A program made the translations under genes and the position numbers. DNA of 64,000 nucleotides from Gammaproteobacteria bacterium (GTDB lineage: Bacteria > Pseudomonadota > Gammaproteobacteria > GCA-001735895). Under the pieces are notes generated by a model, which was not told where the DNA came from, ran no database searches, and saw only the letters and a program-made list of their open reading frames with translations. The stretch spans positions 537 through 64,536 of the forward strand of contig JBDNJA010000113.1 of the NCBI GenBank assembly GCA_041688005.1, in the 5' to 3' direction. Of this stretch, positions 8,844 to 34,912 are shown piece after piece (within the stretch, counting starts at the first letter, position 1; each line of letters starts with the position of its first letter).

Positions 8844-8880
8844 GTCTGGGTAAAGCCGTTCTTTTTCGGTGTTTTTCGCG

Positions 8881-12246: not shown

Positions 12247-12318
12247 AATCTGTACTGACTATCCGACAGTAACAGTTATCATTTAAATCACGGATCAATT
12301 TTAACGAGGAGAGTAGTA

Positions 12319-13482: not shown

Positions 13483-13512
13483 ATCTGACGTAACACTGAA
13501 AAACGGATAACG

Positions 13513-14373
13513 ATGAGAGATCAAAGCAAATCTGGAAACTGGCTTACCGCTGTGTTGTTGGCACCCACATCTCTGTGGTTTTTGTTCATGCTGATTTTGC
13601 CTCTTGTCGTTATCCTGGTTTTTAGTTTCGGCGAACGCGCCGATGTAGGTGGCTATGCCGGAGGCTTTACTTTAGAACATTATGCGAATCTATCGACGAG
13701 ATTGAAAGCTTTTCAAAACACAATGATTATTGCGCCACTGGGTACACTTTTGTGTTTATTAGTGGCCTATCCACTGACTTATTTTTTGGCATTACGTGTT
13801 AGCCAGAAATTCAAACTGATATTACTAGTGTTAGTGATTGTGCCGTTTTGGACCAGCTTACTGGTACGAACATACGCCTGGATTTTTATACTGGGTGGCC
13901 GTGGTATACCCACACTACTAGAATTTATCGGTTTCGAAGGTGTCCGCCTCATCAATACGCAAGGGGCGGTGCTAGTCGGAATCGTTTATGGCTACTTGCC
14001 TCTAATGGTTTTCCCCATTTTTGTTTCCCTGGAGAAACTCGACAAAAGGTTGCTGGAAGCATCCAACGACCTAGGTGCCTCACCTTTCAAAACTTTTTGG
14101 CAAGTAACACTTCCTTTATCTATGCCAGGCATAGCCACTGGTTGCATGCTTGTGTTTATTCTGCTTATGGGTGAATTTATAATCCCCGCCTTTTTAGGCG
14201 GCGGTAAAGTATATTTTGTTGGTAATGCATTGGTCGACTTATTTCTGCAGTCTAGAAACTGGCCTTTTGGCGCAGCAATTTCTGTCACGTTGGTCGCTAT
14301 CATGTTGATTACTGTTACCTTTTATATGCGCATGTTTAATAGTAAAACAGGGAGAGATGAATCCCTGATGTAG
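13513..14373 (+). CDS. ABC transporter permease (PotB-like)
   Basis: Multi-pass membrane protein with the EAA-loop region ...LLEASNDLGASPFKTFWQVTLP... Confidence 0.85.
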   Translation: MRDQSKSGNWLTAVLLAPTSLWFLFMLILPLVVILVFSFGERADVGGYAGGFTLEHYANLSTRLKAFQNTMIIAPLGTLLCLLVAYPLTYFLALRVSQKFKLILLVLVIVPFWTSLLVRTYAWIFILGGRGIPTLLEFIGFEGVRLINTQGAVLVGIVYGYLPLMVFPIFVSLEKLDKRLLEASNDLGASPFKTFWQVTLPLSMPGIATGCMLVFILLMGEFIIPAFLGGGKVYFVGNALVDLFLQSRNWPFGAAISVTLVAIMLITVTFYMRMFNSKTGRDESLM

Positions 14374-14387
14374 GGGATTTAATTATT

Positions 14388-15200
14388 ATGCGAATCTACG
14401 CTATTGCAGTCTTTTTGTTTTTATACGTTCCCATCGGAATCATCGTTCTGTTTAGCTTCAACGCTGGGCAACACGCCAGCGAACTGCGCGGCCTGTCGGT
14501 TCAGTGGTATGGCAAAGCATTGTCAAATCCGTTTGTCGGTGACGCCTTTGTCACCAGCCTGATTATCGCGCTGTCTGTCGCTGTACTTTCGAGTTTACTG
14601 GGAACCACGGCTGCGTTAGCTTTGCAGCGCTTAAAAGGCCCTTTGCGAACCTTTTTCGACGGTATGATTTACGTATCAGTGATGATACCCGGTATTGTCA
14701 TCGGCATCGCCACGCTAGTAGCGCTAGTCACCGTGTTCGACTATCTCAATCCGTTACTCGCCTCCGCCTGGCCCGAAGGAATGAAGCCCCCAAAACTTCA
14801 TATGGGCTATGCCTCGGTGATTGCCGCTCATACTCTTTTCACCATGTCTCTGGTCATTATCCTAGTTAGAGCCAGAATTGCCGGCATGGACCGAACCCTA
14901 ATAGAAGCCTCGATGGATTTATACGCAACTCCGTGGCGTACTTTTTATCAAGTGACTTTGCCACAGATCTTTCCTGCCATTTTGGCCGGATTCTTACTTA
15001 GTTTCACCTTTAGCTTCGACGACTTTATTATTTCGTTTTTTGTCGCTGGGCCGAACACTACACTGCCTGTTTATATCTTCTCGTCAATTCGCAGGGGCAT
15101 AACACCGGAAGTTAACGCAATCGGCACCATGGTTCTGGCTGCTTCATTGATTTTACTGATGGCGGCTCAGTATGCCTTGCACCGTCACGGTAAGCGTTAA
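14388..15200 (+). CDS. ABC transporter permease (PotC-like)
   Basis: EAA loop ...LIEASMDLYATPWRTFYQVTLP... and operon position. Confidence 0.85.
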   Translation: MRIYAIAVFLFLYVPIGIIVLFSFNAGQHASELRGLSVQWYGKALSNPFVGDAFVTSLIIALSVAVLSSLLGTTAALALQRLKGPLRTFFDGMIYVSVMIPGIVIGIATLVALVTVFDYLNPLLASAWPEGMKPPKLHMGYASVIAAHTLFTMSLVIILVRARIAGMDRTLIEASMDLYATPWRTFYQVTLPQIFPAILAGFLLSFTFSFDDFIISFFVAGPNTTLPVYIFSSIRRGITPEVNAIGTMVLAASLILLMAAQYALHRHGKR

Positions 15201-15220: not shown

Positions 15221-15523
15221 TCAAGTCTCCATCTGGTGTTTGATAACCCGCATAGCAATGAAACTGGGCCTGCCATCGACACTTTCACAAGCGATCAAAA
15301 CAGATACTTTACCCTCAGCCCCACGACCTCTTTTCCCTGCCTTTTTTCCACCAATCAGGGCATCGTCTAGCTCTATCACCTCAGACAGACGATAAATAGA
15401 ATCTCTGTGGCCCATGGCGGTTCTAAGTTTTGTTAGCACTCGATAAGCACTACGCCAGGCGACACCAATGAGTTTCGATAATCGTAATGCGGATATGCCG
15501 CTATTTTCGATATTATTTATGAA
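15221..15523 (-). pseudogene. IS1595-family transposase, about 100-aa internal fragment
   Basis: The in-frame reading ...ENSGISALRLSKLIGVAWRSAYRVLTKLR...ELDDALIGGKKAGKRGRGAEGKVSVLIA... matches the HTH/ISXO2-like core of IS1595 transposases. The N-terminal zinc ribbon and most of the DDE domain are missing. Confidence 0.7.
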
Positions 15524-15741: not shown

Positions 15742-17820
15742 ATGCCACGTGATCCTCGTTATGACGTTCTGTTCGAACCGGTAAAAATAGGGCCAGTTAC
15801 TGCAAAAAACCGTTTTTATCAGGCACCACATTGCAATGGAATGGGGCGTACCTTCCCATCCAGTATGGCAGCAATGCGAGGCGTGAAGGCCGAAGGTGGT
15901 TGGGCTGTAATATCAACCGAACAAATTGACATTCATCCAAGCAGCGATATAACACCCGGTACAGAAGGACGACTCTGGTCGGATAAGGACATTCCTTATC
16001 TCGCACGTATGTGTGATGCGGTTCATGAGCATGGTTCACTGGCTTCAATTGAGCCAGTTCATAATGGCTATGTGGCATCTAACCTTTACAGCCGGGAGGT
16101 ACCGATATTCCCAACACACATGCCGGTTGCTACGCATAACCATCCACTGCAGGCACGAGCCATGAATAGAACCGATATTAGAAATTATCGTCGCTGGCAC
16201 CTTGATGCGGTAAAGCGAGCTAAGAAGGCTGGTTATGATATTATTTGTTGCTATGCCGGACATAATCTGTCGCTGGCCGGCATGTTCATGCTGGACCGGT
16301 ACAATTTTCGTACCGACGAATACGGCGGCAACCTCGAGAATCGGGTTCGATTGTTTCGTGAAATCATAGAAGATACCAAGGACGCTGTAGGTGACACAAT
16401 GGGCGTTATTGTACGATTCTCTGTAGACGAACTGCGCGGTAGCGAAGGTTTGGAGGCAGACAAGGAAGGTCGCGAAATCGTCGAAATGCTAGCAGAGCTT
16501 CCCGATCTATGGGATGTCAATATTGCTGAGTGGGAAAACGACAGCATGACTAGTCGTTTTTCTGATGAAGGCTATCAGGAACCTTTTATCGACTTTGTTA
16601 AAAAAGTGACCACGAAACCGGTTGTTGCGGTTGGTCGCTACACATCACCAGACCGAATGGTCTCGCTGGTTAACAAGGGAGTTATTGATATGATTGGCGC
16701 CGCTCGGCCCTCTATTGCAGACCCTTTCCTGCCGAAAAAAATAGAAGAAGGACGTATAGACGAAATTCGAGAATGTATTGGCTGCAATATCTGTGTAGCT
16801 TGGGACAACATGATCGCACCGATGCGCTGCACTCAAAATCCAACCGCTTCGGAGGAGTGGCGTAAAGGTTGGCATCCGGAACGGATAGCTGCAAAGAAAG
16901 ATGATGGTTCAGTTCTTGTTGTGGGCGCTGGGCCCGCAGGTCTCGAGGCTGCACTAGCTGCGGGGCGGCGTGGATACGATGTCATTCTTGCCGAAGCTCG
17001 TGACGAATTGGGTGGCAGGGTCAGTTTGGAAAGTCGGTTGCCGGGCCTTGGTGCTTGGTCGAGAGTGCGCGACTACCGCAGTTATCTGCTGTCACAAATG
17101 CCCAACGTAGAAATCTACCTTAATAACCCTTTGACCTCGGCAGAAATACTGGAACTAGGATCAGCACATATAGCAATAGCAACCGGTGCAAAGTGGAGAC
17201 ATGATGGATATGGCCGCAACCATCAGTTCCCAATTCCTGGTTTGGATAAAACTAATTTACTAACGCCTGACGATATTATTGGTGGGGTTTGTCCAAAAGG
17301 GGACGTATTAATTTATGACGACGACCACTATTATATAGCTTCGGTAGTAGCTGAGTTGCTGGTTAGCCAGGGGTGCAATGTTACATTTGTAACGCCGGAA
17401 TCAGTGGTTTCGGCATGGACTGAATATACTTTGGAACAGCGCCGCATCCAGTCTCGTTTAATCGAAGTTGGCGTGACCATTGTGACCGGTTATAGACTCC
17501 GACAAGTTTCCTCAGAAGCTGTCGTTCTGGGTTGTACTTATTCTGAAAACACAAAAAATATCGAAGCATCATCTATCGTTATGGTTACTTCGCGACTACC
17601 GCAGGATAGCCTTTTTCTTGAGCTAGGGGGCGAACAGACTGACCGAGATTTAGGCCAGCTCAAGACATTGAAGGCCATAGGCGACTGTCATGGGCCAGCA
17701 ACCATTGCCGCGGCCGTATACGAAGGTCACCTATTTGCGCGAGAACTGGGCGAAGAGCCTTCCGATATACCCTATAGGCGCGAGTTGACCGAATTATCAG
17801 TAGAGTTCAAGCTACCCTAG
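15742..17820 (+). CDS. Trimethylamine/dimethylamine/histamine-dehydrogenase-family flavoprotein, paralogue 1 (FMN OYE-like domain + 4Fe-4S + ADP/FAD-type domain)
   Basis: N-terminus RDPRYDVLFEPVKIGPVTAKNRFYQAPHCNGMG, whose Cys corresponds to the 6-S-cysteinyl-FMN Cys of TMADH. Also CIGCNICx9-12C cluster motif and VLVVGAGPAGLEAA. Confidence 0.85.
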   Translation: MPRDPRYDVLFEPVKIGPVTAKNRFYQAPHCNGMGRTFPSSMAAMRGVKAEGGWAVISTEQIDIHPSSDITPGTEGRLWSDKDIPYLARMCDAVHEHGSLASIEPVHNGYVASNLYSREVPIFPTHMPVATHNHPLQARAMNRTDIRNYRRWHLDAVKRAKKAGYDIICCYAGHNLSLAGMFMLDRYNFRTDEYGGNLENRVRLFREIIEDTKDAVGDTMGVIVRFSVDELRGSEGLEADKEGREIVEMLAELPDLWDVNIAEWENDSMTSRFSDEGYQEPFIDFVKKVTTKPVVAVGRYTSPDRMVSLVNKGVIDMIGAARPSIADPFLPKKIEEGRIDEIRECIGCNICVAWDNMIAPMRCTQNPTASEEWRKGWHPERIAAKKDDGSVLVVGAGPAGLEAALAAGRRGYDVILAEARDELGGRVSLESRLPGLGAWSRVRDYRSYLLSQMPNVEIYLNNPLTSAEILELGSAHIAIATGAKWRHDGYGRNHQFPIPGLDKTNLLTPDDIIGGVCPKGDVLIYDDDHYYIASVVAELLVSQGCNVTFVTPESVVSAWTEYTLEQRRIQSRLIEVGVTIVTGYRLRQVSSEAVVLGCTYSENTKNIEASSIVMVTSRLPQDSLFLELGGEQTDRDLGQLKTLKAIGDCHGPATIAAAVYEGHLFARELGEEPSDIPYRRELTELSVEFKLP

Positions 17821-18805
17821 AGGTTAACCACTAGATAATTTGAAGTTGAAGGTAGCGTTGTAGAAAATTTACTGGCTGATTCCAGGCATCTCTATTAGTT
17901 ATGGTCGCTGCTCCATCAACATTGTAAAACCGAGCGGTGGCTTGGCTGTACTCTCTTCAAGGTCACTACAAAATTTGGATATATCACAGTCCAGCTCCTT
18001 AAAATAACGTAACTTCAGTCCGCAATCGATTCCCGACATCAGAATTTCGTCGAGGCGATGCATGAAACTGTAATTGGGTTTTGGGACACCGAGCCGAGTA
18101 ATCATTAGCCAATTTAACAGCAAGGTGGTGAGACCGACGGAAAATTCGTTCACGAATTCGGAACAGCCGTTCACCACGGCCTTGAAGATTTCTCGCCAGT
18201 TTCCGGCTAATTTTTTGGGTTTGAGCTTAGTACCCGGTTTAAAAAAATAGGGCAGTAGAATAAACAGAACAGCTGAATGAGCAAATCCTGTAGCGTATGC
18301 CGCCCCCTTGTCTCCTTTGAAATAGGTTGTAATGAGCGCCCTCTTAATCGTATTGACGCCGCACTAATCTTTCCGCTTCCGGGAGACTTTGCAATCCCTT
18401 GAATCTGTGGTTTAGTAAGAACGTCGCCACTGAATTTAGATCCGAATTGGTCGGGTTTTGGGTCGAATCGATATGCTGCAATAGCATCGTTTCCTTTTTT
18501 AGCGTCGCCTCGGATAAACCCATCTGTATTATTATAGCTCTTAATTCGATCATTTTCTTCGATATTGTGTTTATCGTCGCCTACCTTTCAATCAAGACAA
18601 TCAACGGATGGCGTTAACGGCAACAAAGGAAGTTACCAAGCTGAGTCTGCAGGCGAACCTTCTCGATAGCAGCCGTTCACAAATCTAATCGGTGAGGTAT
18701 CAGTATCAGGTACATATACCTCCTGCACTCTCCACTAAGGAGGATCAATGTGCGACTACGCTAATTTCTGTGTCGATAGTTGCTACACGGAGATTTCAAT
18801 TTCTG

Positions 18806-19588
18806 CTACGAGGTGGAGTTGTCGGCAACGACCTTTCCTGGGGTGAAGGCACAGTAGACCTTGGTGACAGGGACATCGCACTGCCATTTGTATTGCGCGC
18901 CTAGTGGAACGAAACAAGCCTCCCCGCTCTTGAACACCTGGCTATTGCCAACACCATCTGAGACAGTTGCTTCGCCTTCAAGAATGCACATCAAGTCGAA
19001 ATGATCGAATTCGCATACCGGACGCTCAAAGGCAGTGCTGTTCCAGATGCCAACCGTAAACTGGCCTGTAACGTCGGTGTAATAGATATGGTTATGCTGA
19101 TCAGGGACAATACCGATGATCTGACTGGTGTCCGCAATGACGATAGGTGTCTTGGCGTCGCTCGGTCTTGGAGTCATAATGCCATACCGAGCAGGGTTAT
19201 CGTGAACTTCGTCTCCCCTACCAGAGAAGATAACGAAGTACTTGCGTATATACTCGGTTTGCACCCAGCGGCAAATCAAGCCTTTCGGGACGATAAAACT
19301 TTCACCTGCAGAAATGGTTGTTGAGGCGCCGTCTTCCAGCTCCATGGTGACTGACCCTTCCAGTACATACATGAATTCTTCGACCGAATAGGGTTCCATT
19401 TTTCCTCGAAAAGGAGTGCAGTCCCAGACTCCAGCCATCAGGCCTGAAGCTTCGTCATTGTAATATAAATGCCCGCGCTGGACTGGCTCACCGCTCTCAA
19501 TGTCAGCCGGGTCCATGACATCCCACTCCACTAGTTTAGTGTCAGCTGGGCCTTCAAGTTCAAACCGGGTAACTTTATTAACATTCAT
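18806..19588 (-). CDS. Bicupin protein (two cupin_3/DUF861-like repeats)
   Basis: There are two internally repeated halves, each with a ...G.W.ST/CTPF...E...ILEG...V... pattern. Confidence 0.7.
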   Translation of the reverse strand: MNVNKVTRFELEGPADTKLVEWDVMDPADIESGEPVQRGHLYYNDEASGLMAGVWDCTPFRGKMEPYSVEEFMYVLEGSVTMELEDGASTTISAGESFIVPKGLICRWVQTEYIRKYFVIFSGRGDEVHDNPARYGIMTPRPSDAKTPIVIADTSQIIGIVPDQHNHIYYTDVTGQFTVGIWNSTAFERPVCEFDHFDLMCILEGEATVSDGVGNSQVFKSGEACFVPLGAQYKWQCDVPVTKVYCAFTPGKVVADNSTS

Positions 19589-20193
19589 AGGACGTTCCTT
19601 AGTGCATCAAATTAATCAATACCATAGGTTATATGGTTAGCGAGAAAGCGATTAAACTTCTGAGTTCGGCTAATATATCACCTGCTGTCGGCATCGTAGA
19701 GACCTTTTTTATTCATAACTTTAATTTAATAATATGCTCGAATCGATGGCTGTTTTGTCGATGCGATTTTCATTGACTAATAGAATCTTAAAAATAGAGA
19801 GCCTCTTAGAAATGATTGACAGAAGTCTAAGGGTTAGTCTCACGCGGAAGTATCCAGTTTACAGCACCGTTAGCGAGGGTCATGTTTCGCATTTCTGACA
19901 GCTTTCTTGAAGCAAAAGTCCTGATGCAATTTGCGAAAATAGCACGACTTTTTCGGGTGAACTTGAGTGACTGATTTCAAAATTAACAACCTTGCAGTAA
20001 CTGATCAAAATTTTAATCCGTTGTCACCTTTTACCTCTCCTTTTCTCCATCAAGCCAAGACAAACATGTTGTTTTTCCCGTGAGGCAGTTCGGGTAGCCA
20101 CGCTTCACGCCGCGTTATTTGGACTCATGAAACTGCTTGAGATTGAATAAGGACTCGCCGGAGCCGTTAGTACGATATAATGCTTTGGTTATA

Positions 20194-20209
20194 TTGATTG
20201 ATCAGTCAA
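20194..20209. promoter_or_regulatory. Candidate TetR/BetI-type operator TTGATTGATCAGTCAA (7 of 8 dyad positions)
   Basis: It lies 61 nt upstream of the tetR start, within the TATTGATTGATCAGTCAAAATA context. It resembles the BetI-type TTGATTG half-site. Confidence 0.45.
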
Positions 20210-20269
20210 AATAAAGTAAAATACACTTCCCTTATAGATATAATCAGCGATTTATAGAGTCATGTATTT

Positions 20270-20908
20270 ATGTTGATTTCAACTCAACCCAGTCGGCCTC
20301 AAAAACGAGATCGATCTGTCGGTAACGAAGCTCGACGACGACAGTTAATCGAGGCGACGATAGAGTCGATCTCAGTTCATGGGCTTAACAAAACGACCTT
20401 GGGTACAGTTACCAAAATTGCGAACCTCTCGCATGGCGTGGTCAACTTTCATTTCAAGAGCAAAGATTTGCTATTACTTGAAGCGTTGCGTTTTCTTGTT
20501 GATGAGCATATTGATCATTGGCAGGCAGGCCTAAACCAAGCCGGTGACAGCGCGCCCGATAAACTGTTGGCAATGGTTGCTACTGATTTTGACGAAGAAA
20601 TTGCCAATCCGAAACGTCTCTCGGTTTGGTTTGCTTATTGGGGCGAAGTTAATAATCGTCCCGCCTATCGCGAAATTGCCGGTAACAATGATCGACAACG
20701 ACGGAATGAAATCAAACGACTCTGTCAGAGTTTAATCGAGCAAGGTGACTACAAAGGCATCGATGCCGAAGTATTCAGTACTAATCTCGAAGCACTTATC
20801 GATGGCTTATGGTTAAGCATCTTGATGGCGCCGAGTAAAATGACGGCGCAAAAGGCAAAAAACAATTGCCGGACATTTCTGTCAGCCATTTTTTTCAAAC
20901 ATTTTTAA
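20270..20908 (+). CDS. TetR-family transcriptional regulator (BetI-like C-terminal domain)
   Basis: N-terminal HTH ...RRRQLIEATIESISVHGLNKTTLGTVTKIANLSHGVVNFHFKSKDLLL... Confidence 0.85.
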   Translation: MLISTQPSRPQKRDRSVGNEARRRQLIEATIESISVHGLNKTTLGTVTKIANLSHGVVNFHFKSKDLLLLEALRFLVDEHIDHWQAGLNQAGDSAPDKLLAMVATDFDEEIANPKRLSVWFAYWGEVNNRPAYREIAGNNDRQRRNEIKRLCQSLIEQGDYKGIDAEVFSTNLEALIDGLWLSILMAPSKMTAQKAKNNCRTFLSAIFFKHF

Positions 20909-20929
20909 ATAAAAGTTAAGGTTTTAGCT

Positions 20930-22996
20930 ATGGCTCGCAATCCTCGTTATGACATTTTATTCGAACCAGTGAAAATTGGCCCAGTAACGGCCAAGAATCG
21001 TTTTTATCAAGTACCACATTGCAATGGTATGGGTCACCAGTACCCATCTAGCATGGCAGAAATGCGCGGTGTCAAAGCCGAAGGTGGCTGGGCTGTCGTG
21101 TGCACCGAAGAAGTCGAAGTATCGCATATTTCTGAACATAGCCCTCTGGTTGAAGGTCGACTTTGGGACGACAGGGACATTCCTGTGTTTGAGAAAATGA
21201 CGGATAAAATTCATCAGTATGGTGGATTAGCGGGTATTCAGCCCACTTTTCTCGGTGCGAACGCAGGAAATTTATACAGTCGTGAAATTCCGCTAGCTCC
21301 ATCTTTGAGGCCGGTAGAAGGTTACGCGCCGATTCAGGCTCGCGCTATGACTCGAGCAGACATTCGTAACGTACGCAAATGCTATGTCGATGCGGCCTTA
21401 CGTGCCAAACGAGCGGGGTTCGACATTATTTACAATTACGCGGCGCATGACGAAACTGTTCAAATGCATTTTCTATCGCGTCGGCACAACCAGCGTACGG
21501 ATGAATACGGCGGTTCTTTGGAGAACCGAAGCCGCTTGTTTCGAGAAGTCATGTCGGACATGAAAGATGCGGTGGGTGATACCTGTGCCATAGCCGTACG
21601 CTTTGCTGTCGATGAATTGCTCGGTTTAGACGGTATATCTTGCGATGCGGAAGGGCACGATATTATCGAAATGTTAGCCGAAGTACCGGACCTTTGGGAT
21701 GTTAACGTCAGTTCCTGGGAAAACGACTCGCTGCCATCACGGTTTGGAGAAATGGGAAGTCAGGAACAGTACACATCGTTTGTTAAACAGGTTACTGGTA
21801 AGCCGGTTGTCGGCGTTGGCCGCTACACTTCGCCGGATAAAATGGTGTCGCTCATTAAAAGCGGGAAGCTGGACTTGATTGGTGCTGCGCGCCCCTCGAT
21901 TGCAGATCCCTTCTTACCGAATAAAATCGACGAAGGCCGAGAAGAAGACATACGTGAATGTATCGGCTGTAATATTTGTGTCACTGCCGACTTTACTTGC
22001 ACACCGTTTCGTTGTACGCAAAACCCGACCATGGGTGAAGAATGGCGACGTGGCTGGCATCCGGAAAATATAGCCCCTAAAAAGAGTGACGATAGTGTTT
22101 TGATAGTCGGAGCAGGTCCTGCCGGACTCGAAGCCGCTCAAGCATTGGGCAAGCGAGGTTATGAAGTCATTCTCGCCGAAGTAGGTACCGAGTTGGGTGG
22201 TCGTGTTATTAAAGAATCCAGTTTGCCGGGGCTAAGTGAATGGATACGGGTGCGGGACTATCGAGAAGGCCAGTTAATCAAGCTCGCTAATGTTGAAATC
22301 TATCGAGACAACTGGTTAGACGCAGCACAAATTCTAGAATTCGGTTTCCAGCATGTCGCCATTGCTACCGGCTCCCAATGGCTAAGTGATGGCCGAGGTC
22401 GAATTAACCACTTTGCCATTGATGGTCATCAACAAGCACATGTATTCACGCCTGACGATATTATGAAGGGTGCTGTGTTACAGGGCAGCGTCACCATTTT
22501 TGACGACGACCATTTTTACATGGGCGGTGTTCTGGCTGAAAAACTACGCAGTGAAGGTCACGAGGTAACGCTGGTTACACCGGCCGCGGATGTGTCAAGC
22601 TGGACACATAACACGCTCGAACAGGAACGTATTCAAACACGCTTGCTGGAAATGGACGTTATCATCAAAGCGCATCGAAACCTCTGTGAGATTAAAGTAG
22701 GCGAAGTCGAATTAGCCTGCACCTTTACCGATAGGCGCGAACGCTTACAAGCCGATAATGTCGTCATGGTGACCATGCGTGAACCCATTGATGGGCTTTA
22801 TCAGGAATTGAGTGACAATCAATTGGCACTGGATACGGCGGGTATTAAGTCGCTGACCTCAATTGGTGATTGCCTCTCCCCCGGCATTATAGCGGCGGCC
22901 GTTTGGAGTGGGCACCGTTATGCCCGTGAGCTTGATGAACCTGTCAGTGATGAAGTCCCATTTAAACGCGAGCTGCCAGGGCAACTGGTTGTATAG
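20930..22996 (+). CDS. TMADH-family flavoprotein, paralogue 2
   Basis: Same architecture and motifs as paralogue 1 (VPHCNGMG, CIGCNICVTADFTCTPFRCTQN, VLIVGAGPAGLEAA). It starts 21 nt after tetR. Confidence 0.85.
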   Translation: MARNPRYDILFEPVKIGPVTAKNRFYQVPHCNGMGHQYPSSMAEMRGVKAEGGWAVVCTEEVEVSHISEHSPLVEGRLWDDRDIPVFEKMTDKIHQYGGLAGIQPTFLGANAGNLYSREIPLAPSLRPVEGYAPIQARAMTRADIRNVRKCYVDAALRAKRAGFDIIYNYAAHDETVQMHFLSRRHNQRTDEYGGSLENRSRLFREVMSDMKDAVGDTCAIAVRFAVDELLGLDGISCDAEGHDIIEMLAEVPDLWDVNVSSWENDSLPSRFGEMGSQEQYTSFVKQVTGKPVVGVGRYTSPDKMVSLIKSGKLDLIGAARPSIADPFLPNKIDEGREEDIRECIGCNICVTADFTCTPFRCTQNPTMGEEWRRGWHPENIAPKKSDDSVLIVGAGPAGLEAAQALGKRGYEVILAEVGTELGGRVIKESSLPGLSEWIRVRDYREGQLIKLANVEIYRDNWLDAAQILEFGFQHVAIATGSQWLSDGRGRINHFAIDGHQQAHVFTPDDIMKGAVLQGSVTIFDDDHFYMGGVLAEKLRSEGHEVTLVTPAADVSSWTHNTLEQERIQTRLLEMDVIIKAHRNLCEIKVGEVELACTFTDRRERLQADNVVMVTMREPIDGLYQELSDNQLALDTAGIKSLTSIGDCLSPGIIAAAVWSGHRYARELDEPVSDEVPFKRELPGQLVV

Positions 22997-23035
22997 CAAA
23001 TCATCTAATCCATAGTTAGGCCGGAAGTTAGTCTT

Positions 23036-25108
23036 ATGAGTAAACGTGATCCTCGATACGACCCTTTATTTGAACCTGTAAAAATCGGGCCGGTTACGGC
23101 TAAAAATCGATTTTATCAAGTTCCCCACTGTACTGGCATGGGTTGGATGCGGCCACGTATGGTGGCCGACTTGCGTGGCGTGAAGGCCGAAGGTGGTTGG
23201 GGTGTGGTTTGCACGGAGTATTGCTCAATACACCCAAGTTCTGACGATGCGCCATACCCATCACATTCGCTTTGGGATAAAAACGATATCAAATCGCATC
23301 GGTTAATGACCGACAAACTACACGAGCACGGTGCGCTTGCGGGCGCTGAGCTTTGGGTGTCGGGCAGTCGTTCTGCTAATTTACTCACTCGTGAAGTACC
23401 TATGGATGTGGCGTCATTGCCCAATAGTAACGGTGACCCCTATCAATCCCGAACAATGGACAGAGCTGACATCAAAGAACTCAAGCGTTGGCACCGTAAC
23501 GCCGCATTGCGAGCCAGGGACGCCGGGTTCGATATCGTTTATGTTTACGCGACACATGAATATTTGTTTGACAATTTTCTCAATCCTAAATTGAATACGC
23601 GCAGCGACGAATATGGTGGCTCACTTGAGAATAGAATGCGATTGGTGCGCGAAATTATCGAAGAAACCAAAGATGCGGTTGGCGACAAATGCGCCGTCGC
23701 CGTTCGTTTTACCGTCGATGATGGTGGTGGTGCTGATGGCGTTCCTGTTCACGGCGAACGAATGGAGATGTTCGAATCAATGGCTGAGTTACCGGATCTT
23801 TGGGATATCAATATCTCGGATTACTCGTTGGAAATGGGCGTATCCCGATTCGTCAAAGAAGGCTCACTCGAAACTTATATGTCGGAGGTTAAATCGAAAA
23901 CCAGTAAACCGGTTGTTACCGTCGGACGGTTTACCTCGCCAGATACCATGATTAGCCAGGTGAATCGCGGCATTGTTGATTTTATTGGTGCCGCCCGACC
24001 ATCGATAGCAGACCCTTTTTTACCCCAAAAAATTGAGCAGGGCAGACCTGAAGATATTCGCGAGTGCATTGGTTGTAATATTTGCTATACCGGTGACAGT
24101 CGGCATGTGCCAATTCGGTGTACCCAAAATCCAACCATGGGCGAAGAATGGCGACGTGGCTGGCACCCAGAAAAGATTGATCCGAAAGGGTCGGACAGCC
24201 AAATATTGATTGTCGGTGCAGGCCCAACTGGTTTGGAAGCCGCTCGCGCACTCGGTCAGCGAGGTTACGACGTGATACTGGCCGAAGCCAGTCGGGAACT
24301 GGGTGGTCGTGTCAACCACGAAAGCCGGCTTCCAGGTTTAGCCGAGTGGGCCAGAGTACGTGATTATCGAGTGACTCAAATGGCCAAAATGCCCAATGTA
24401 GCGGTTTACCTAGAAAATAATCTAGCGCTCGACGATATTCTGGAAATTGGCGCCGACCATGTTGCCATTGCAACAGGGGCAACATGGCGTCGGGATGGTT
24501 TTGGCAGCTACCATATTGTTCCAATGCAGCCTTTGCCACCGACCGAATCGACATATACTCCCGACGACATTATGTCGGGGCGCTTACCTGTTGGCAGCAC
24601 ACTGGTGTATGACGACGATGGTTTTTATATGGGCAGTGTTATTGCCGAGAAACTCCGAGAGAATGGTAACCCGGTCATTTACTTGACGCCGGAACCGAAG
24701 GTTTCAAGTTGGAGTAGTAACAATGCCGAGCAACCTCGAGTTCATCGTCGCTTGGTTGAACTGGGTGTTGAAATTATATTAAATTATGGGCTGGATGCCT
24801 TCGATGGCGAACAGGCCGTTTTAGGATGCAGCTATACCGGTCAGCAGCGGAACGTCTCGGTCGAGAATGTCGTCATGGTTAGTAGTCGTACGCCTCAGGA
24901 TCAGCTTTATTATAGTTTGCTTGGTGCAATAGAGAATAATCGACCAGGCGCACCGAAAACAGTTAAACGAATCGGGGATGCTGAAGCACCCGCGATTATT
25001 GCGGCTGCGGTCTTTTCTGGTCATAAGTATGCCCGCGAAATCGACGTCGAAATCGACCGTGATAACCCTTTCAAACACGATAGAGTCTTTTTTGAAGACA
25101 ACCAGTAA
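23036..25108 (+). CDS. TMADH-family flavoprotein, paralogue 3
   Basis: VPHCTGMG, TEYCSIHPSSDD (closest of the three to the TMADH motif as I recall it), CIGCNICYTGDSRHVPIRCTQN and ILIVGAGPTGLEAA. Confidence 0.85.
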   Translation: MSKRDPRYDPLFEPVKIGPVTAKNRFYQVPHCTGMGWMRPRMVADLRGVKAEGGWGVVCTEYCSIHPSSDDAPYPSHSLWDKNDIKSHRLMTDKLHEHGALAGAELWVSGSRSANLLTREVPMDVASLPNSNGDPYQSRTMDRADIKELKRWHRNAALRARDAGFDIVYVYATHEYLFDNFLNPKLNTRSDEYGGSLENRMRLVREIIEETKDAVGDKCAVAVRFTVDDGGGADGVPVHGERMEMFESMAELPDLWDINISDYSLEMGVSRFVKEGSLETYMSEVKSKTSKPVVTVGRFTSPDTMISQVNRGIVDFIGAARPSIADPFLPQKIEQGRPEDIRECIGCNICYTGDSRHVPIRCTQNPTMGEEWRRGWHPEKIDPKGSDSQILIVGAGPTGLEAARALGQRGYDVILAEASRELGGRVNHESRLPGLAEWARVRDYRVTQMAKMPNVAVYLENNLALDDILEIGADHVAIATGATWRRDGFGSYHIVPMQPLPPTESTYTPDDIMSGRLPVGSTLVYDDDGFYMGSVIAEKLRENGNPVIYLTPEPKVSSWSSNNAEQPRVHRRLVELGVEIILNYGLDAFDGEQAVLGCSYTGQQRNVSVENVVMVSSRTPQDQLYYSLLGAIENNRPGAPKTVKRIGDAEAPAIIAAAVFSGHKYAREIDVEIDRDNPFKHDRVFFEDNQ

Positions 25109-25122
25109 TCTGGAAATTAACT

Positions 25123-27525
25123 ATGCCCGCTAGCGATGAAAATGATATCCGCTTTCTAAACCCTGAACCGCCAAAATTTACGCAACAGCAGGCTAAGCAA
25201 AGCGCCTTCGACCTGTTTGGACTGACTGGGGAAATGAAACCCTTATATAGCGAACGTGATCAAAATTTCCGAATTCGAAGTCCGAAAGACGATTTTGTTT
25301 TCAAAATTTCAAATGCGCATGAAGATGCCAGCGTGATCGATTTGCAAACTAAAACATTGTTGCATCTAGCTAAAAATGATCCGAACTTACCTGTACCAGA
25401 AGTGGTTCTAAACAAAAATGGTAAAGACCACGACTTCATAGAAGCTGATGATGGCAAACAGCATATGGTTAGAGTATTAACTTACTTGCCCGGCGTAGTC
25501 ATGGCCGACCTGCCTACCAGTGACGCTTTGTATCAAGATGTCGGTGCCGTTATGGCAAGATCTGGCATTGCCTTGAGAGATTTTTTCCACCCCGCCGCCG
25601 GTTATGATTTGCTGTGGGATCTGCGCCAATTACCCAAAATTCGTTGTTTGACTCAATACCTTGACGACGCCACTTTGCGTGAAATGGTTGAGCAGGATCT
25701 CGATTTTACCTGCGAATATATTCTGCCGCAGTTATCCGGTATGCGTAGTCAAATAATTCACAATGATGGCAATATTCACAACCTCATCGTTGATCCCAAT
25801 AATCCCGACAAGGTCAGCGGGCTAGTCGATTTTGGTGACATGATGCACGCTCCCCTTATCTTTGACCTAGCCGTTTCGGCGGGCTCATTGACGTTAGACT
25901 CGACTGATCCTTTGGCAGTGATGTGTCAGGTTGCTGCGGGCTATGACCGTGTCTTACCGCTTGAAGAAAAAGAAATCGACCTGTTGTCGCATTTGGCCGT
26001 TGGTCGAATAAGTCAGGAACTATTAATCGCTGCAAAACGCCGACACGATGACCCTAATGCGGCTGAGTATGTGCTGGCGGACGAAGCTTCGTTTTCTAAA
26101 ATCATACTAGTATTACTCAATGTTGGACATCAGGCTATGCGCGCCCGCCTACGCGAAATTTGTCGCTTTCCCTGTGCAGATAATGGCAAAGTCGAAGTGC
26201 CCAATTCTCAAGTCGATGATATTGCACCCTTGCTTAAACGTCGCGAACAGACCTTAGGTAAAACGCTGGAACTGGCTTACGACAAGCCTTTTCATGTCGT
26301 TCGCGGTGAAGGAGTTTGGCTATATGACGCGGATGGAAATCGCCATCTAGACGTTTATAACAATGTTCCTCATGTCGGTCATTGTCATCCACATGTGGTA
26401 AAAACAGTGAGCCGACAACTGGCCACCCTAAACACCAATACACGGTATTTGTTTGACAATGTAGTGAGCTACGCCGAACGTTTGGCTGCGAGTTTGCCGA
26501 GTGATCTTAGTAGCTGTATTTTTGTTAATTCGGGCAGTGAGGCCAACGATGCGGCGATGCGTATTGCCCGCACCCTGACTAAGAAACAGGGTGCAATCAT
26601 AATGGAAGACGCGTATCACGGCATAACCGAATCAATCGACGAACTATCGCCTGCGGCCTATCCTGGGGTGCAAGCACCAAATCCGGTAGCAAGGGTGCGT
26701 ACCCTCGAAGCTCCCGATATGTATCGTGGACGTTTTCGCGACGATCCTGAAAATGCGTCTAGGCTTTACGCGCAAAGTGCAGACACAGCGATACAAAGCT
26801 TGCAGGAAATCGGTCTGGGTACGGCAGCCTTTATGATCGATTCATCATTTAGTAGCAATGGTATTTTGCCGGTATTACCCGGCTATTTACCCGCCGTAAC
26901 CGATAAGGTACGAGCGGCTGGTGGTTTGATAATCGCCGACGAAGTTCAAATAGGTTTTGGTCGTTGCGGCTCCCATTTTTGGGGGTTCGAAGCGCAGGCA
27001 ATCATGCCCGATATCGTCACGCTCGGAAAACCCATCGGTAACGGTATTTCTCTGGGTGTCGTCGTCACCACGCCCGCTATTCGTGAAGCGTTTGGCGAGG
27101 AAATCGACTTTTTCAGTACCTTTGGTGGTAACCCGGTAGCCTGCGCGGCAGCCCATGCCGTGTTCGACGTTATCGAGCAGGAAGGTTTATTAGAAAATGC
27201 GCGTGACAATGGCCACTATATGCGGGAAGGCTTACGTCAGATAAGCGACCAATATCCTGCAATAGGTGACGTGCGTGGACAGGGTTTGTTCATCGGCATC
27301 GAAATAGTAACAGACCGTATTAGCAAGCAACCAGACGCTATGATGGCGGACCGAATTCGAAACCGCCTTCGAGAAAAACGGGTGTTGGTCGGTCGTGAAT
27401 CGCGCACTGGAAACGTCATCAAAGTTCGACCCCCGCTAGCCTTTCGTCGCGAACACACGGATATTTTGCTGGAAGCCTTTGGAGAGACGCTAGCCGAACT
27501 TTGCCCATCAGTTCAACCTAGATAG
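25123..27525 (+). CDS. Fusion protein: N-terminal APH-type (aminoglycoside-phosphotransferase-fold) kinase plus C-terminal class-III aminotransferase-fold PLP enzyme (AGXT2L/phospho-lyase-like)
   Basis: The kinase half has the Brenner motif IHNDGNIHN and Mg site LVDFGDM. The PLP half has ...VNSGSEANDAA..., ...IADEVQIGFGRCG... and the PLP-lysine context DIVTLGKPIGNG. Confidence 0.8.
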   Translation: MPASDENDIRFLNPEPPKFTQQQAKQSAFDLFGLTGEMKPLYSERDQNFRIRSPKDDFVFKISNAHEDASVIDLQTKTLLHLAKNDPNLPVPEVVLNKNGKDHDFIEADDGKQHMVRVLTYLPGVVMADLPTSDALYQDVGAVMARSGIALRDFFHPAAGYDLLWDLRQLPKIRCLTQYLDDATLREMVEQDLDFTCEYILPQLSGMRSQIIHNDGNIHNLIVDPNNPDKVSGLVDFGDMMHAPLIFDLAVSAGSLTLDSTDPLAVMCQVAAGYDRVLPLEEKEIDLLSHLAVGRISQELLIAAKRRHDDPNAAEYVLADEASFSKIILVLLNVGHQAMRARLREICRFPCADNGKVEVPNSQVDDIAPLLKRREQTLGKTLELAYDKPFHVVRGEGVWLYDADGNRHLDVYNNVPHVGHCHPHVVKTVSRQLATLNTNTRYLFDNVVSYAERLAASLPSDLSSCIFVNSGSEANDAAMRIARTLTKKQGAIIMEDAYHGITESIDELSPAAYPGVQAPNPVARVRTLEAPDMYRGRFRDDPENASRLYAQSADTAIQSLQEIGLGTAAFMIDSSFSSNGILPVLPGYLPAVTDKVRAAGGLIIADEVQIGFGRCGSHFWGFEAQAIMPDIVTLGKPIGNGISLGVVVTTPAIREAFGEEIDFFSTFGGNPVACAAAHAVFDVIEQEGLLENARDNGHYMREGLRQISDQYPAIGDVRGQGLFIGIEIVTDRISKQPDAMMADRIRNRLREKRVLVGRESRTGNVIKVRPPLAFRREHTDILLEAFGETLAELCPSVQPR

Positions 27526-27561
27526 GTAAGATATGGCATATATGTCTGTTTTTCAGGCGCA

Positions 27562-28455
27562 TCAGTCTTTCACATAGGTCCGCCAATTGTGTTCCTCAAC
27601 AAACCCTAGCATTTCGCGTATCTTGCGGTTGGAAAACAACGCTTCATGCTCCTCAAGAGTGCGCGTTACTGGAGTGCCGGGAAAAAATTGATCAATAAGG
27701 TCTGCCGATGGAATATTCGCCGTATTGGTATCATTGCCTGCGTTGAAAACCTGGTATCCCAATCCGTCCTTCTCAACACAGAGATCTACGATCTGTCCAA
27801 GATCACGAGCATCAATATAGCAAAAGGCATTACGTCGGCGCTGCTCTGGATTGATAAAGAAGTCAAGGAAACGGTGGTATTCATGTGGCTCGATCACGTT
27901 GCCGATACGAAGGGCATAGATATCTATTCCAGATCGTCTTTGGAAGGCTCGCGCGGTATGTTCATTCACCACTTTAGACAGACCATAGCTATCCATTGGG
28001 TCGACATCGTAATCTTCTTCCAGTGGGAATGACTTCGGGTTCACCCGGCCATCAGAAAAGCAAATTCCGTAAGTTGTTTCGGAAGAAGCAATAACTACCT
28101 TCTTGATGCCGAGTTTCACCGCGGCCTCGATCACGTTATACGTCCCAATCGTATTCACCCTAAACGTCTCGTTGTCTGGATTGATAAGGATGCGTGGAAC
28201 CGCAGCGAAGTGTACAACAGCATCAAATCGAGGGACACCAGTGCCCGTTTCCATTTCGTCCCAATCAGCATAGCTCGTCATGACATTGAACATCTGTCCA
28301 GAATCAGTGATGTCAGCAATCAGCGTTTCAACACCATCAAGTTCAAGGGGGACCAAATCAACGTTCAAGACGCGATGGCCCTGAGAAACCAGGTACTCGA
28401 TGGCATACTTACCTGCCTTACCAGAACCACCTGTGAATAGAATGCGCTTACCCAT
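27562..28455 (-). CDS. NAD-dependent epimerase/dehydratase-family (extended SDR) protein
   Basis: N-terminal ILFTGGSGKAGKY Rossmann motif and a YxxxK region (SYGLSKVV). Confidence 0.8.
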   Translation of the reverse strand: MGKRILFTGGSGKAGKYAIEYLVSQGHRVLNVDLVPLELDGVETLIADITDSGQMFNVMTSYADWDEMETGTGVPRFDAVVHFAAVPRILINPDNETFRVNTIGTYNVIEAAVKLGIKKVVIASSETTYGICFSDGRVNPKSFPLEEDYDVDPMDSYGLSKVVNEHTARAFQRRSGIDIYALRIGNVIEPHEYHRFLDFFINPEQRRRNAFCYIDARDLGQIVDLCVEKDGLGYQVFNAGNDTNTANIPSADLIDQFFPGTPVTRTLEEHEALFSNRKIREMLGFVEEHNWRTYVKD

Positions 28456-28707
28456 GCTTGACGATTTCCTTTATCGTAATTTATTTCTCAACTTAGCCAC
28501 CACTCTATCGTCATTGAAGGAATGGCGCGAATTATAATATGAGTAGATGATACGATTTTGTCGAAATCTCGTATATATGCCAATTAACACGACGCGCCGA
28601 CATAGATGGTGTCCCAGCAGGACTCGGGTCTGAATCAAAGAATAAAAAAAGGGCAAAGCAGAATGACACTAAGTTAAGCCCCTTCCCAAAAAAACATAGC
28701 AAAACAG

Positions 28708-28915
28708 GGGCTGTATGACGACATCCTAGTTATCTTGGTCCAAAGCCGAAAGAACATAAAAGGCAGCGGAAACGTTTTTTGAAAGTTGCTCAAAGGATTA
28801 AAGTACCCACCCAATAAAATAGTCACTGATCAGTTTCAAAGCTATGGTACTGCTCATAGAGAAATAAGATTGCCAGTACCAAAACAATCGGGCTGAAAAA
28901 TCACATCAGCGAACA
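28708..28915 (+). pseudogene. IS6-family transposase remnant with an in-frame stop and a frameshift
   Basis: It reads GLYDDILVILVQSRKNIKGSGNVF*KLLKGLKYPPNKIVTDQFQSYGTAHREI..., then AEKSHQRT in the +1 frame. These correspond to the IS6 blocks ...vlD.lvq.rRd..AA..Ff.kll...P..ivTD.l.SY.aA.rei... and RAENSHQPTR. Confidence 0.65.
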
Positions 28916-29592
28916 TGACGCTGCTGAACGAACATTTGACCGATGTAACTCACTCCGACGGTGGCATCATCACGATGAATTTCTGCGAACCCACCTACGG
29001 CGTCGACGACGGAGGCTATCACCCCGCCGATTTATATAGTCCTTGGGTGAGCTGCTGTATCTGACTGACTTCGCTTACTTCGATAAACCTTTTGTGGAGA
29101 TAGGTATAGAGTTCGACCGAAATTTCGAGCCGGACAGTTTCCGACAATACTATTCATTTTATGATCTGAATTTCGGCAGAAGCTTGCTCGACTTAATTTA
29201 CCCACAATTTCACCGACTACTAATGTTCGGGCATCAAGATCGTCTTGCTGTCCGTGTCTATCACTATTTGAAGCCTATTTTTCGCGATCAAAAAGATGCA
29301 CGGCTGCGAATCATTATGCTTTTGGGTTGGCCCAAGTGGCTGGCCTACGACAGGCTGCCAGCCTCACCATACTCTGTCGCAATTTCGCGTCCCATAGTTC
29401 CCCCATGTAGTGGCCGAAATCTTCCCAGGTCGGCAAATCTGGAGGACTCTGAGCAGGCACTGACTGATGCAGAGAGGCACAGATTCAGCTGCAAGGAGAA
29501 TCGTCAGATGGAAAATGCGCAAAACTCGGTACCTTATATGAAGAAAAAAACACCGAGGCCAATATGCAACTAATCACCAACATAAATCACTC

Positions 29593-29838
29593 GCGACAGG
29601 GCTAGTAACACAAATAGTTGAAGATGCTGAACTGGAATCAACCGTTTTAGGGCTCGCAACCAAACTAGCCACCTTCCCTCCGGTTGGTATGAAGAATATA
29701 AAGCATTCATTCAATGCTGCCTTGGAGGCCAGCTTAACTTCAACCCTAGAATTAGAATCGAAGTTTGATCTGGAATGCTACCAGTCAACTGAAACTCGCC
29801 AGGCACTAAAGGCGTTTATTGATTCAAGGCGTAAATAG
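29593..29838 (+). pseudogene. Enoyl-CoA hydratase/isomerase (crotonase) C-terminal remnant, about 80 aa with no start
   Basis: The in-frame reading ...GLVTQIVEDAELESTVLGLATKLATFPPVGMKNIKHSFNAALEASLTSTLELESKFDLECYQSTETRQALKAFIDSRRK* is a typical crotonase tail. Confidence 0.6.
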
Positions 29839-29982
29839 GTATCAAGCATAAACAATTGTTCTGGGCTCACAGGCGATAGATTAAGGCATAGCCGATACAG
29901 ACACCTTTACTGATAATATTTTGTACCTCGGAGTACATCGCTTGTAGCTAATCACCCCTATAGACCCAACACACGGACGATA

Positions 29983-30019
29983 CCGTAGGGCGCAATAGCG
30001 AAGCATATTGCGCCGAATG
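29983..30019 (+). repeat. REP-type hairpin CCGTAGGGCGCAATAGCGAAGCATATTGCGCCGAATG
   Basis: 9-bp stem GGCGCAATA/TATTGCGCC with a GTAG head. Related copies lie at 40559-40596 and 40741-40780. Confidence 0.65.
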
Positions 30020-30293
30020 GAAACAACGATTAAAGGAACAATCGACTCTGGCAGATTACAAAAGAAACCACAGTAACAGTTATTGTAGATCCTCACCGTC
30101 AACCTGCCATAACGTTATAGAAATCACTTGCTCATCGAACAAACCGATTTGGCGCTGGTTCGATATTTTTAGTCGGTATGACCTCGCAAGAAATCTATTA
30201 GTTTGATTGCTGAAAACCACCCTGGCTGTTGATAAAAGGGTGGTGAAAATATTTGGCCTGTATTCTCGTTCTCGAGGCTGGTACATTTAGCGA

Positions 30294-31766: not shown

Positions 31767-32240
31767 ATGAGTTTGATCAAGTTAGATGCTATTGACCTTC
31801 GTATTCTGGCCGCTGTCCAGGCACACGGGCGTTTGAGTAAAACGGCGTTGGCTGAGAAGGTTAATCTATCGGCAACACCTTGTTGGACTCGTCTAACACG
31901 ACTGGAGAAAACGGGTGTTATTAGCGGTTATCATGCTGAGATAGCGTTTGGCAAAATTGCCAATGTGGCAACAGTCATGCTGGAAATTTCGCTCAAACAA
32001 CATCGTTATCAGGACTTCGAGCATTTTGAAAAACGAATTTGTGAGATTGATGAAATTGTCGAGTGCATTGCCACTGGTGGTGGCATCGATTACATCATGA
32101 AACTGATAGTACCAAGTATTGCGGCATATCAGGCACTTATCGATAATTTGCTCATCGAAAATATTGGCATAGACCGTTTTTTTACCTACATCGTCACACG
32201 TGAAATCAAGTCGATTAAACGCAGGTTAACTGATTTATAG
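31767..32240 (+). CDS. Lrp/AsnC-family transcriptional regulator
   Basis: LDAIDLRILAAVQAHGRLSKTALAEKVNLSATPCWTRLTRLEKTGVISGY... followed by a RAM domain. Confidence 0.9.
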   Translation: MSLIKLDAIDLRILAAVQAHGRLSKTALAEKVNLSATPCWTRLTRLEKTGVISGYHAEIAFGKIANVATVMLEISLKQHRYQDFEHFEKRICEIDEIVECIATGGGIDYIMKLIVPSIAAYQALIDNLLIENIGIDRFFTYIVTREIKSIKRRLTDL

Positions 32241-32406
32241 CCGGTGTTTCTATCAGCCTGTTCGCTAACAGTCTAAACAGACTGTATATCACTGAAAATC
32301 AATCTGATCATACCACACTGGCGCGCTAATAGAGTCCAGACTGGCGATTCAATCCGAGTATGCTCACTGCTTCGAATTCAATTCAACTAAAAGCAAGAGT
32401 ATTTAT

Positions 32407-33561: not shown

Positions 33562-33588
33562 TGGCTCTGATGATAACAGGAGAGAGCA

Positions 33589-34038: not shown

Positions 34039-34086
34039 TAACATAGTTGCGTTTGGTAGTCCTGTTAGTCATACGAGGTTGAAGTC

Positions 34087-34911: not shown

Positions 34912-34912
34912 C

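Follow-up and report, generated by a model that had tools for sequence, protein, structure and literature searches.

A compact, co-inherited cassette of two amine dehydrogenases and a kinase::phospho-lyase fusion under a BetI-like operator in a marine gammaproteobacterium

Do closely spaced genes for a TetR-type regulator, two flavoprotein amine dehydrogenases and a fused kinase and phospho-lyase represent one catabolic system, and which compound would such a system break down? We addressed this question for a 64,000-nt stretch of gammaproteobacterial DNA (contig JBDNJA010000113.1, positions 537 to 64,536), here called the window. A first-pass annotation had proposed that these genes, together with an importer and other neighbours, couple oxidative N-dealkylation to deamination via a phosphorylated intermediate. 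We found that positions 20190-27525 are a catabolic cassette that is self-contained and whose location has shifted between genomes. The four genes and their operator form a compact, co-inherited unit in a marine bacterium. The probable role of the cassette is the degradation of an N-substituted amino alcohol, along a route to which genes have not been assigned. The cassette has the following features:

20190 to 27503, plus strand: conserved cassette block, i.e. operator/promoter and tetR-T2-T3-fusion (blastn against locus L166)
20194 to 20209, no strand: palindromic operator TTGATTGATCAGTCAA, 16 nt (dyad scan)
20270 to 20908, plus strand: TetR repressor gene tetR (TetR_N and BetI-type TetR_C_6 domains)
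20930 to 22996, plus strand: amine dehydrogenase T2 (Oxidored_FMN and Pyr_redox-type domain)
23036 to 25108, plus strand: amine dehydrogenase T3 (Oxidored_FMN and Pyr_redox-type domain)
25123 to 27525, plus strand: fusion of a kinase with a pyridoxal phosphate (PLP) enzyme (APH and Aminotran_3 domains)

According to the open reading frame (ORF) coordinates, the intergenic gaps are 21 nt (tetR/T2), 39 nt (T2/T3) and 14 nt (T3/fusion). T2 and T3 encode proteins of 688 and 690 amino acids, respectively, and the fusion has 800. The coordinates, strands and tight operon structure given in the first-pass annotation were reproduced exactly, and Pfam and NCBIfam support the domain assignments of all genes listed here and below.

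The arrangement recurs elsewhere. At least four other contigs, with fusions of 69-85% identity, carry the tetR-T2-T3-fusion unit, one of them (L003) without sequence upstream of T2. Within the close clade (fusions 64-85% identical), locus L166 (fusion 85%) has the same four genes, with the same spacing, amid entirely different neighbours. Window positions 20190-27503 form a single 7,314-bp blastn block with L166 positions 5069-12381 (86.7% identity), which runs from the operator to a point 22 nt short of the fusion gene's stop codon, and nothing outside this block aligns. The order is extended to tetR-T2-T3-fusion-GST-bicupin-Hpt in L168/L169 (71%) and L084 (70%), and in L084 and L168 the end of T3 and the start of the fusion gene share 4 nt. 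L003 (69%), the contig of which begins inside T2, has T2-T3-fusion and then a bicupin gene. What the comparison shows is a unit with joint inheritance, translational coupling and autonomous regulation.

Seen from the fusion, the link is narrow. We inspected 80 loci from species-representative genomes with fusions of 35-69% identity, and only two of them (L003 and L019) have a neighbour of the trimethylamine dehydrogenase (TMADH) family. L019 belongs to an alphaproteobacterial metagenome-assembled genome (MAG), in which a bicupin-fusion pair is divergent from genes for a substrate-binding protein, two permeases, an ATPase, a TetR regulator and a T2-like dehydrogenase. The neighbours of the fusion are otherwise not conserved, the most common one being an ATP-binding cassette (ABC) ATPase. 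The fusion itself is common in full length, with both domains present in all 120 best database matches. The link between fusion and dehydrogenases is confined to one gammaproteobacterial clade and one alphaproteobacterial MAG. Co-occurrence of the fusion with TMADH-family genes, the lack of which would have refuted the proposal in the terms of the first-pass annotation, was found in L003, L019, L084, L166 and L168/L169.

A separate observation concerns two window genes upstream of the ABC genes described below, which encode a short-chain dehydrogenase/reductase (SDR; 9217-10029) and a LuxR/GerE-type regulator (10093-10932). Their homologues (24-40% identical) directly precede the fusion in several unrelated genomes (L024-L026, L054 of Marinomonas spartinae, L007-L010 and L034-L051).

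The operator was characterised further. TTGATTGATCAGTCAA is self-complementary at 14 of its 16 bases, and four dyad matches were observed in the window versus 0.77 expected from shuffled sequences. The site lies 60 nt before the tetR start and coincides in part with a sigma-70-like pair of -35 and -10 elements; the promoter and terminator scans perform at chance level and were used for position only. Another dyad-like match, at 41534, falls within the ribulose-phosphate epimerase gene and was treated as a chance occurrence. The identical operator is present upstream of tetR in L166 (position 5073), and near-identical palindromes precede tetR in L084 (TTGATTGACTAGTCAA, position 5116) and L168 (TTGACTGACCAATCAG). 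The variant TTGAATGAnCATTCAA is found in the divergent module promoters of L099, L110, L132, L144 and L152. Near-palindromes of the form TTGA-N8-TCAA occur nine times in 1.04 Mb of fetched loci, and six of these are of the operator type. The intergenic dyad of E. coli betI-betT, TTGATTGGACGTTCAA, matches TTGATTGATCAGTCAA at 12 of 16 positions. In view of this match and of the recurrence at related promoters, the term "BetI-like operator-type dyad" used in the first-pass annotation is well founded.

The C-terminal domain of the regulator is of the BetI-type TetR_C_6 family (2.9e-22). The protein scores below the cut-offs of both BetI models, however (TIGR03384, 109.5 versus 201.3 bits; NF001978, 105.6 versus 118 bits), and is only 29% identical to E. 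coli BetI. By these sequence measures it is classified as a paralogue of BetI, not as BetI itself. The E. coli system and the cassette have the TetR_C_6 domain and the half-sites TTGATTG...TCAA in common. In contrast, the regulated genes differ, and neither the cassette nor its homologues contain betA, betB or betT.

The fusion protein consists of an APH-fold kinase (residues ~1-350) and a class-III PLP domain of the phospho-lyase type (~365-800). The best matches of the PLP half are human ETNPPL (6tor, 2e-108) and the Arthrobacter phospholyase (5g4i, 2e-103), in contrast to values of 1e-57 or worse for transaminases and decarboxylases. The PLP lysine K636 is invariant and lies inside a GKPxGNG motif. 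The kinase half matches Pfam APH (9e-25), and its motif residues H213, D215 and N220 (HxD...N) as well as D236-F-G-D239 (DFGD) are invariant. A search of the Protein Data Bank (PDB) with the single kinase sequence gave no match. A profile was needed, and its top match was 6ef6 (1.8e-10), which is named as an aminopropanol kinase in PMC7314540. Taken together, the homologies make the fusion a credible amino-alcohol kinase plus O-phospho-amino-alcohol phospho-lyase, in line with the first-pass annotation.

Both halves are homologous to the enzymes of characterised pairs, i.e. human HYKK with PHYKPL and ETNPPL, the aminopropanol kinase of M. smegmatis (6EF6) with its phospho-lyase, and Arthrobacter A1RDF1 (5G4I). 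The difference is that here the two activities would be fused in one protein of 800 amino acids that is encoded behind two amine dehydrogenases. The amino-alcohol kinase/phospho-lyase route has long been known biochemically, reportedly from work on Erwinia and Pseudomonas by Jones, Faulkner and Turner in 1973. Bacterial kinase fusions are said to have been noted by Veiga-da-Cunha et al. in 2012, when the human enzymes were identified. To our knowledge, no substrate has so far been assigned to any bacterial kinase::phospho-lyase fusion. A reading in which 5-hydroxylysine or N-methyl-hydroxylysine is the substrate and window genes 1294-6964 encode a lysine/2-aminoadipate pathway was considered and is unsupported; these genes have only generic acyl-CoA dehydrogenase, E1 and acyltransferase matches in NCBIfam.

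The first-pass annotation had described the dehydrogenases, including a third paralogue in the window (T1), as TMADH paralogues that would act as TMADH-type N-dealkylators. They have the characteristics of the family, i.e. a flavin mononucleotide (FMN) TIM-barrel and ADP-binding domains, the counterpart of Cys30 and the motif Cys-X2-Cys-X2-Cys-X11-Cys. C32, to which FMN would be linked as 6-S-cysteinyl-FMN, and the Fe-S cluster cysteines C344, C347, C350 and C362 (T3 numbering) are invariant in all three proteins, which are ~53% identical to one another. Their best PDB matches, though, are histamine dehydrogenases (6de6/3k30, 728-802 bits), followed by 6l6j and only then by TMADH (540-565 bits). 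T1 is the most histamine-dehydrogenase-like paralogue (802 bits to 3k30). The scores of T2 are 795 bits for 6de6/3k30 versus 565 bits for TMADH, those of T3 are 728 bits for 6de6 versus 552 bits, and the margin ranges from 170 to 260 bits across the three paralogues.

The predicted pockets differ from those of both reference enzymes. At the aromatic bowl positions Tyr60/Trp264/Trp355 of TMADH the residues are Y/Y/D in T3, E/W/D in T2 and Q/W/D in T1. T3 retains Tyr60 inside a TEYCSI motif identical to that of TMADH; its pocket (Tyr/Asp/Tyr/Tyr/Glu/Asp, signature C-Y-D-x-x-x-Y-Y-E-D) is kept in ~80 marine homologues. The T2 pocket is acid-rich (E, E, W, D, D), and its signature, CEHLENEWDD, is common to the three cassettes in which T2 is intact and was not seen at fusion-less loci. 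The histamine-binding set proposed for N. simplex comprises Gln65, Ile74, Phe77, Glu79, Asn115, Tyr181, Trp267 and Asp358 (PMC10180351), of which T1 keeps five, T2 four and T3 two, so that the full set is present in none of them. On the basis of the pocket residues and the PDB ranking, the proteins are members of the histamine dehydrogenase/TMADH family, each with a pocket of its own, and not TMADH orthologues (EC 1.5.8.2). T2 and T3 are accordingly classified from their sequences as FMN/[4Fe-4S]/ADP amine dehydrogenases of this family. With regard to the DgcA/StcD-type betaine demethylases considered in the first-pass annotation, a similarity of >50% to histamine dehydrogenase together with the FMN-linking cysteine places all three in the histamine dehydrogenase/TMADH branch.

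The histamine dehydrogenases of Nocardioides simplex (3K30) and Rhizobium sp. 4-9 (6DE6) and the related enzyme Pno (6-hydroxypseudooxynicotine dehydrogenase) share with T1-T3 the three-domain architecture; the FMN-linking cysteine, the four cluster cysteines and an aspartate at the Asp358 position are also common to histamine dehydrogenase and T1-T3. The differences are the only partly kept binding residues and the genomic context. Likewise, the family and the cofactor motifs are common to T1-T3 and TMADH of Methylophilus methylotrophus (1DJN/2TMD), but Tyr60 is found only in T3, and all three lack a complete bowl. Likeness to histamine dehydrogenase leaves room for secondary amines as substrates: an N-methyl compound of this type is cleaved by Pno, which shares 48% identity with histamine dehydrogenase (PMC5500553). 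A separate ORF of the OYE family (27-31% identical) adjoins T2/T3 in L094-L110.

For comparison, we viewed the distribution from the dehydrogenase side, using 80 marine metagenome loci with T3 homologues of 57-90% identity. A T2-like gene is located directly upstream of the T3 homologue in eight of the 52 loci with enough upstream flank. Among the 80 loci, 24 have a Pot-type ABC ATPase, 15 a TetR regulator and 10 a bicupin. Clustering of the neighbours revealed recurrent genes for aldehyde dehydrogenases, DAO-type oxidases, class-III aminotransferases, MttB-family methyltransferases, DMGDH-like DAO+GcvT proteins, flavin amine oxidases and Rieske oxygenases. One locus has a GbdR-like regulator and an AruI-like decarboxylase (5-guanidino-2-oxopentanoate decarboxylase). 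T3 falls within a 132-member cluster at 90% identity that includes the Arctic Ca. Njordibacter. At the Ca. Njordibacter locus, which has no fusion nearby, the T3 orthologue is accompanied by another member of the family, a pair of TetR_C_6 regulators, a Pot-type importer, a class-III aminotransferase and a Rieske oxygenase. The occurrence of T3-like genes beside Rieske, MttB, DMGDH-like and class-III aminotransferase genes is the layout expected for stepwise demethylation to a primary amine. In at least five marine loci an ORF of ~160 amino acids without a Pfam match directly follows the T3-like gene (e.g. L099 12067-12543, L132 12085-12567 and L124 2738-3220).

The first-pass annotation had included four further elements in the system:

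18806 to 19588, minus strand: bicupin, DUF861/Cupin_3 x2 (two Cupin_3 domains, Pfam)
27562 to 28455, minus strand: SDR of the NAD-dependent epimerase/dehydratase family, convergent to the fusion gene
15742 to 17820, plus strand: T1, the third dehydrogenase paralogue, at a separate locus (802 bits to 3k30)
11077 to 15200, plus strand: PotA/D/B/C-type ABC importer, four genes, upstream of T1

All of them lie outside the conserved unit. T1 is 94% identical to a protein of 692 amino acids encoded in L178, and the bicupin is 83% identical to the L178 bicupin, which sits in the same T1-containing locus. In L178, T1 and the bicupin are separated by 4.4 kb (8841-13260) that hold DAO, aldehyde dehydrogenase and methyltransferase genes; the corresponding stretch in the window is 666 bp long and non-coding (18082-18747). 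This gap is a deletion junction, and the synteny shows that T1 and the bicupin are parts of another locus that has been partly deleted, beside which the cassette came to lie. The "IS scars" that had been noted here reduce to one weak fragment of an IS1595-type insertion sequence transposase at 15221-15439 (23 bits, below the Pfam cut-off of 27); no transposase remnant was found in the gap between T1 and the bicupin. The bicupin is only 25-39% identical to those that accompany T2/T3 modules elsewhere, and its nearest structure is the uncharacterised 3myx. A homologue with 74% identity is located in L180 (241-4081) beside further cupin proteins, namely two ectoine-synthase-like proteins and a DMSP-lyase-family protein (DMSP, dimethylsulfoniopropionate), a context that hints that this bicupin subfamily handles osmolyte-type compounds.

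The importer shares only 22-48% identity with the transporters found in T2/T3 modules. Its substrate-binding protein scores below the equivalog cut-offs for PotD (121 versus 582) and PotF (97 versus 636) and is a family-level match only. Since betaines and DMSP are ligands of a SAR11 protein that carries the PotD annotation (PMC11485210), a Pot-type binding protein is not diagnostic of the substrate class; it was set aside as evidence for polyamines. The SDR is absent beside the cassettes in L166, L168 and L084, and the conserved block stops at 27503. Based on the L178 synteny, the limits of the L166 block and the low identity of the importer, we rejected the bicupin, T1, the importer and the SDR as conserved parts. 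The system-level grouping should shrink to the operator, tetR, T2, T3 and the fusion.

Several other features of the window were recorded. The 1.8 kb at 28456-30293 have no credible gene; the sole long ORF (29043-29573, 176 amino acids) has family matches at noise level. Rfam and tRNA scans gave no match in the cassette region, and a 6S RNA (SsrS) was found at 54300-54482 on the minus strand (99.9 bits). The left part of the window, with a truncated ISL3 transposase at 624-1097, is a mosaic catabolic island, and housekeeping genes (purC, purK, rpe, trpEGDC, ilvA) begin at ~36.5 kb. The genes at 31767-36553 all have one direction and encode an AsnC regulator, a GcvT-family protein, OsmC, an enoyl-CoA hydratase and an acyl-CoA synthetase. 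The GcvT-family protein scores 366 bits on the model of the DMSP demethylase DmdA (cut-off 410), and the region looks like a DMSP-demethylation-type cluster.

What could the five conserved elements do together? Gene order, conservation of the unit and of the operator, and the family assignments were established directly; the ligand, the substrate and the order of steps are what we infer. The BetI paralogue would occupy the palindrome TTGATTGATCAGTCAA and leave it when a choline-like amine binds, enabling transcription of the two FMN/[4Fe-4S] dehydrogenases and the bifunctional enzyme. T2 and T3, with their different pockets, would oxidise C-N bonds of an N-substituted amine and release aldehydes, and the remaining product would be a primary 1-amino-2-hydroxy compound, e.g. 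ethanolamine or 1-amino-2-propanol. By homology, the kinase half would then phosphorylate the hydroxyl group, and the PLP half would eliminate Pi and NH3 to yield an aldehyde. The simplest substrates would be N,N-dimethyl- or N-methyl-ethanolamine or other N-alkyl ethanolamines or propanolamines. Because an aldehyde dehydrogenase and an aminotransferase are missing from the cassette, a tertiary N-alkyl amino alcohol fits best, as two groups would leave before a single deamination; two removable groups would match two dehydrogenases.

We estimate a probability of about 45% for this scheme of C-N oxidation by the dehydrogenases followed by phosphorylation and lyase cleavage of an amino alcohol. 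It is supported by the tight operon, the recurrent gene order, the 7.3-kb block that starts at the operator, the independent association in L019, the BetI-like operator and BetI-type ligand domain of the regulator, the likeness of the fusion to phospho-lyases and to aminopropanol kinase, the precedent of Pno, and the demethylation-type surroundings of T3-like genes elsewhere. Several observations weigh against it. A kinase domain was found at none of the 80 T3-like loci, 50 of which have at least 2.5 kb of downstream sequence, and the T3 pocket is the same at loci with and without the fusion. Conversely, 78 of the 80 fusion loci, from diverse genomes, are without a TMADH-type neighbour, and even in the close clade the fusion stands alone without dehydrogenases in L083 (72%) and L167 (71%). 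Histamine dehydrogenase, to which all three dehydrogenases are nearer than to TMADH, is a primary-amine enzyme, and the Tyr60/Trp264/Trp355 bowl is complete in none of them. In addition, the carboxylate-rich pocket predicted for T2 would suit di-cationic amines better than a mono-cationic amino alcohol.

The last two points would fit the catabolism of a hydroxylated di- or polyamine, e.g. 2-hydroxyputrescine or an analogue of spermidine that bears a hydroxyl group. Here the fusion would turn the 1-amino-2-hydroxy end into an aldehyde, and T2 and T3 would oxidise the primary or secondary amino groups that are left. The histamine dehydrogenase nearest to the flavoproteins also oxidises agmatine, putrescine and 1,3-diaminopropane (PMC10180351), and related T2/T3 modules occur with PotD/F-type importers, aldehyde dehydrogenases, class-III aminotransferases, flavin amine oxidases and the AruI-like decarboxylase. 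However, none of the cassettes examined (L166, L168 and L084) has an aldehyde dehydrogenase or an aminotransferase, the regulator and its operator indicate a choline-like ligand, and the transporter family carries little information in view of the SAR11 PotD ligands (PMC11485210). We regard this explanation as unlikely. Alternatively, the enzymes could be co-regulated and chemically unconnected, i.e. T2 and T3 would oxidise, here as in the many fusion-less genomes, a common marine amine while the fusion scavenges free ethanolamine or aminopropanol, both in the service of nitrogen acquisition. That the fusion usually stands alone, with even its top neighbour at just 11 of 80 loci, would be explained in this way, as would the uniform T3 pocket, the 90%-identical Ca. 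Njordibacter orthologue with no fusion nearby and the narrow distribution of the link. Yet the unit, with its translational coupling and a dedicated operator, has been inherited whole over a range of 69-85% fusion identity, a second, independent association exists in L019, and the T2 signature of the cassettes is missing at fusion-less loci, so that we consider a mere co-regulation distinctly improbable.

Plain oxidation of trimethylamine or dimethylamine next to an unrelated fusion gene would agree with the name "dimethylamine/trimethylamine dehydrogenase" that the Joint Genome Institute (JGI) and other sources give to members of the T3 cluster, and with the TMADH-like Tyr60 of T3. The margin in favour of histamine dehydrogenase, the replacement of Trp264 by Tyr and of Trp355 by Asp in T3 and of Tyr60 by Glu in T2, and the lack of methylamine-handling genes in the cassette make it very improbable.

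The N-substituted amino alcohol scheme can be sharpened to a compact, previously undescribed pathway from dimethylethanolamine via methylethanolamine and ethanolamine to acetaldehyde, NH3 and Pi. The flavoproteins would serve as sequential N-dealkylases, the fusion would replace the ethanolamine ammonia-lyase that depends on B12, and the BetI paralogue would sense a choline analogue; in this specific form the proposal is doubtful. A comparable logic, N-dealkylation followed by a kinase and a phospho-lyase, was reportedly described for di- and triethanolamine by Williams and Callely in 1982, with a pathway said to end in the conversion of ethanolamine O-phosphate to acetaldehyde and reportedly with no genes assigned. 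The dealkylating enzymes differ, i.e. dealkylation is said to have proceeded by a monooxygenase/N-oxide route and not by Fe-S flavoprotein dehydrogenases. Our literature search revealed no paper that ties the kinase/phospho-lyase route to dehydrogenases of the histamine dehydrogenase/TMADH family or to a BetI-like regulator. Each part is of a known kind; their combination in one operon is new.

The T3 family is abundant in marine metagenomes and is annotated as dimethylamine/trimethylamine dehydrogenase by analogy only. The conserved cassette joins two abundant families, the T3-like dehydrogenases and the kinase::phospho-lyase fusions, and gives a concrete way to test both. Should the two functions turn out to be unconnected, the TMADH annotation is still corrected and a conserved BetI-like operator is still defined. 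If the proposed scheme is true, it would provide a first substrate for the widespread bacterial fusions and for the marine "dimethylamine/trimethylamine dehydrogenase" homologues. It would also represent a B12-independent recovery of nitrogen and carbon from choline-related amines, which would be relevant to the turnover of marine dissolved organic nitrogen.

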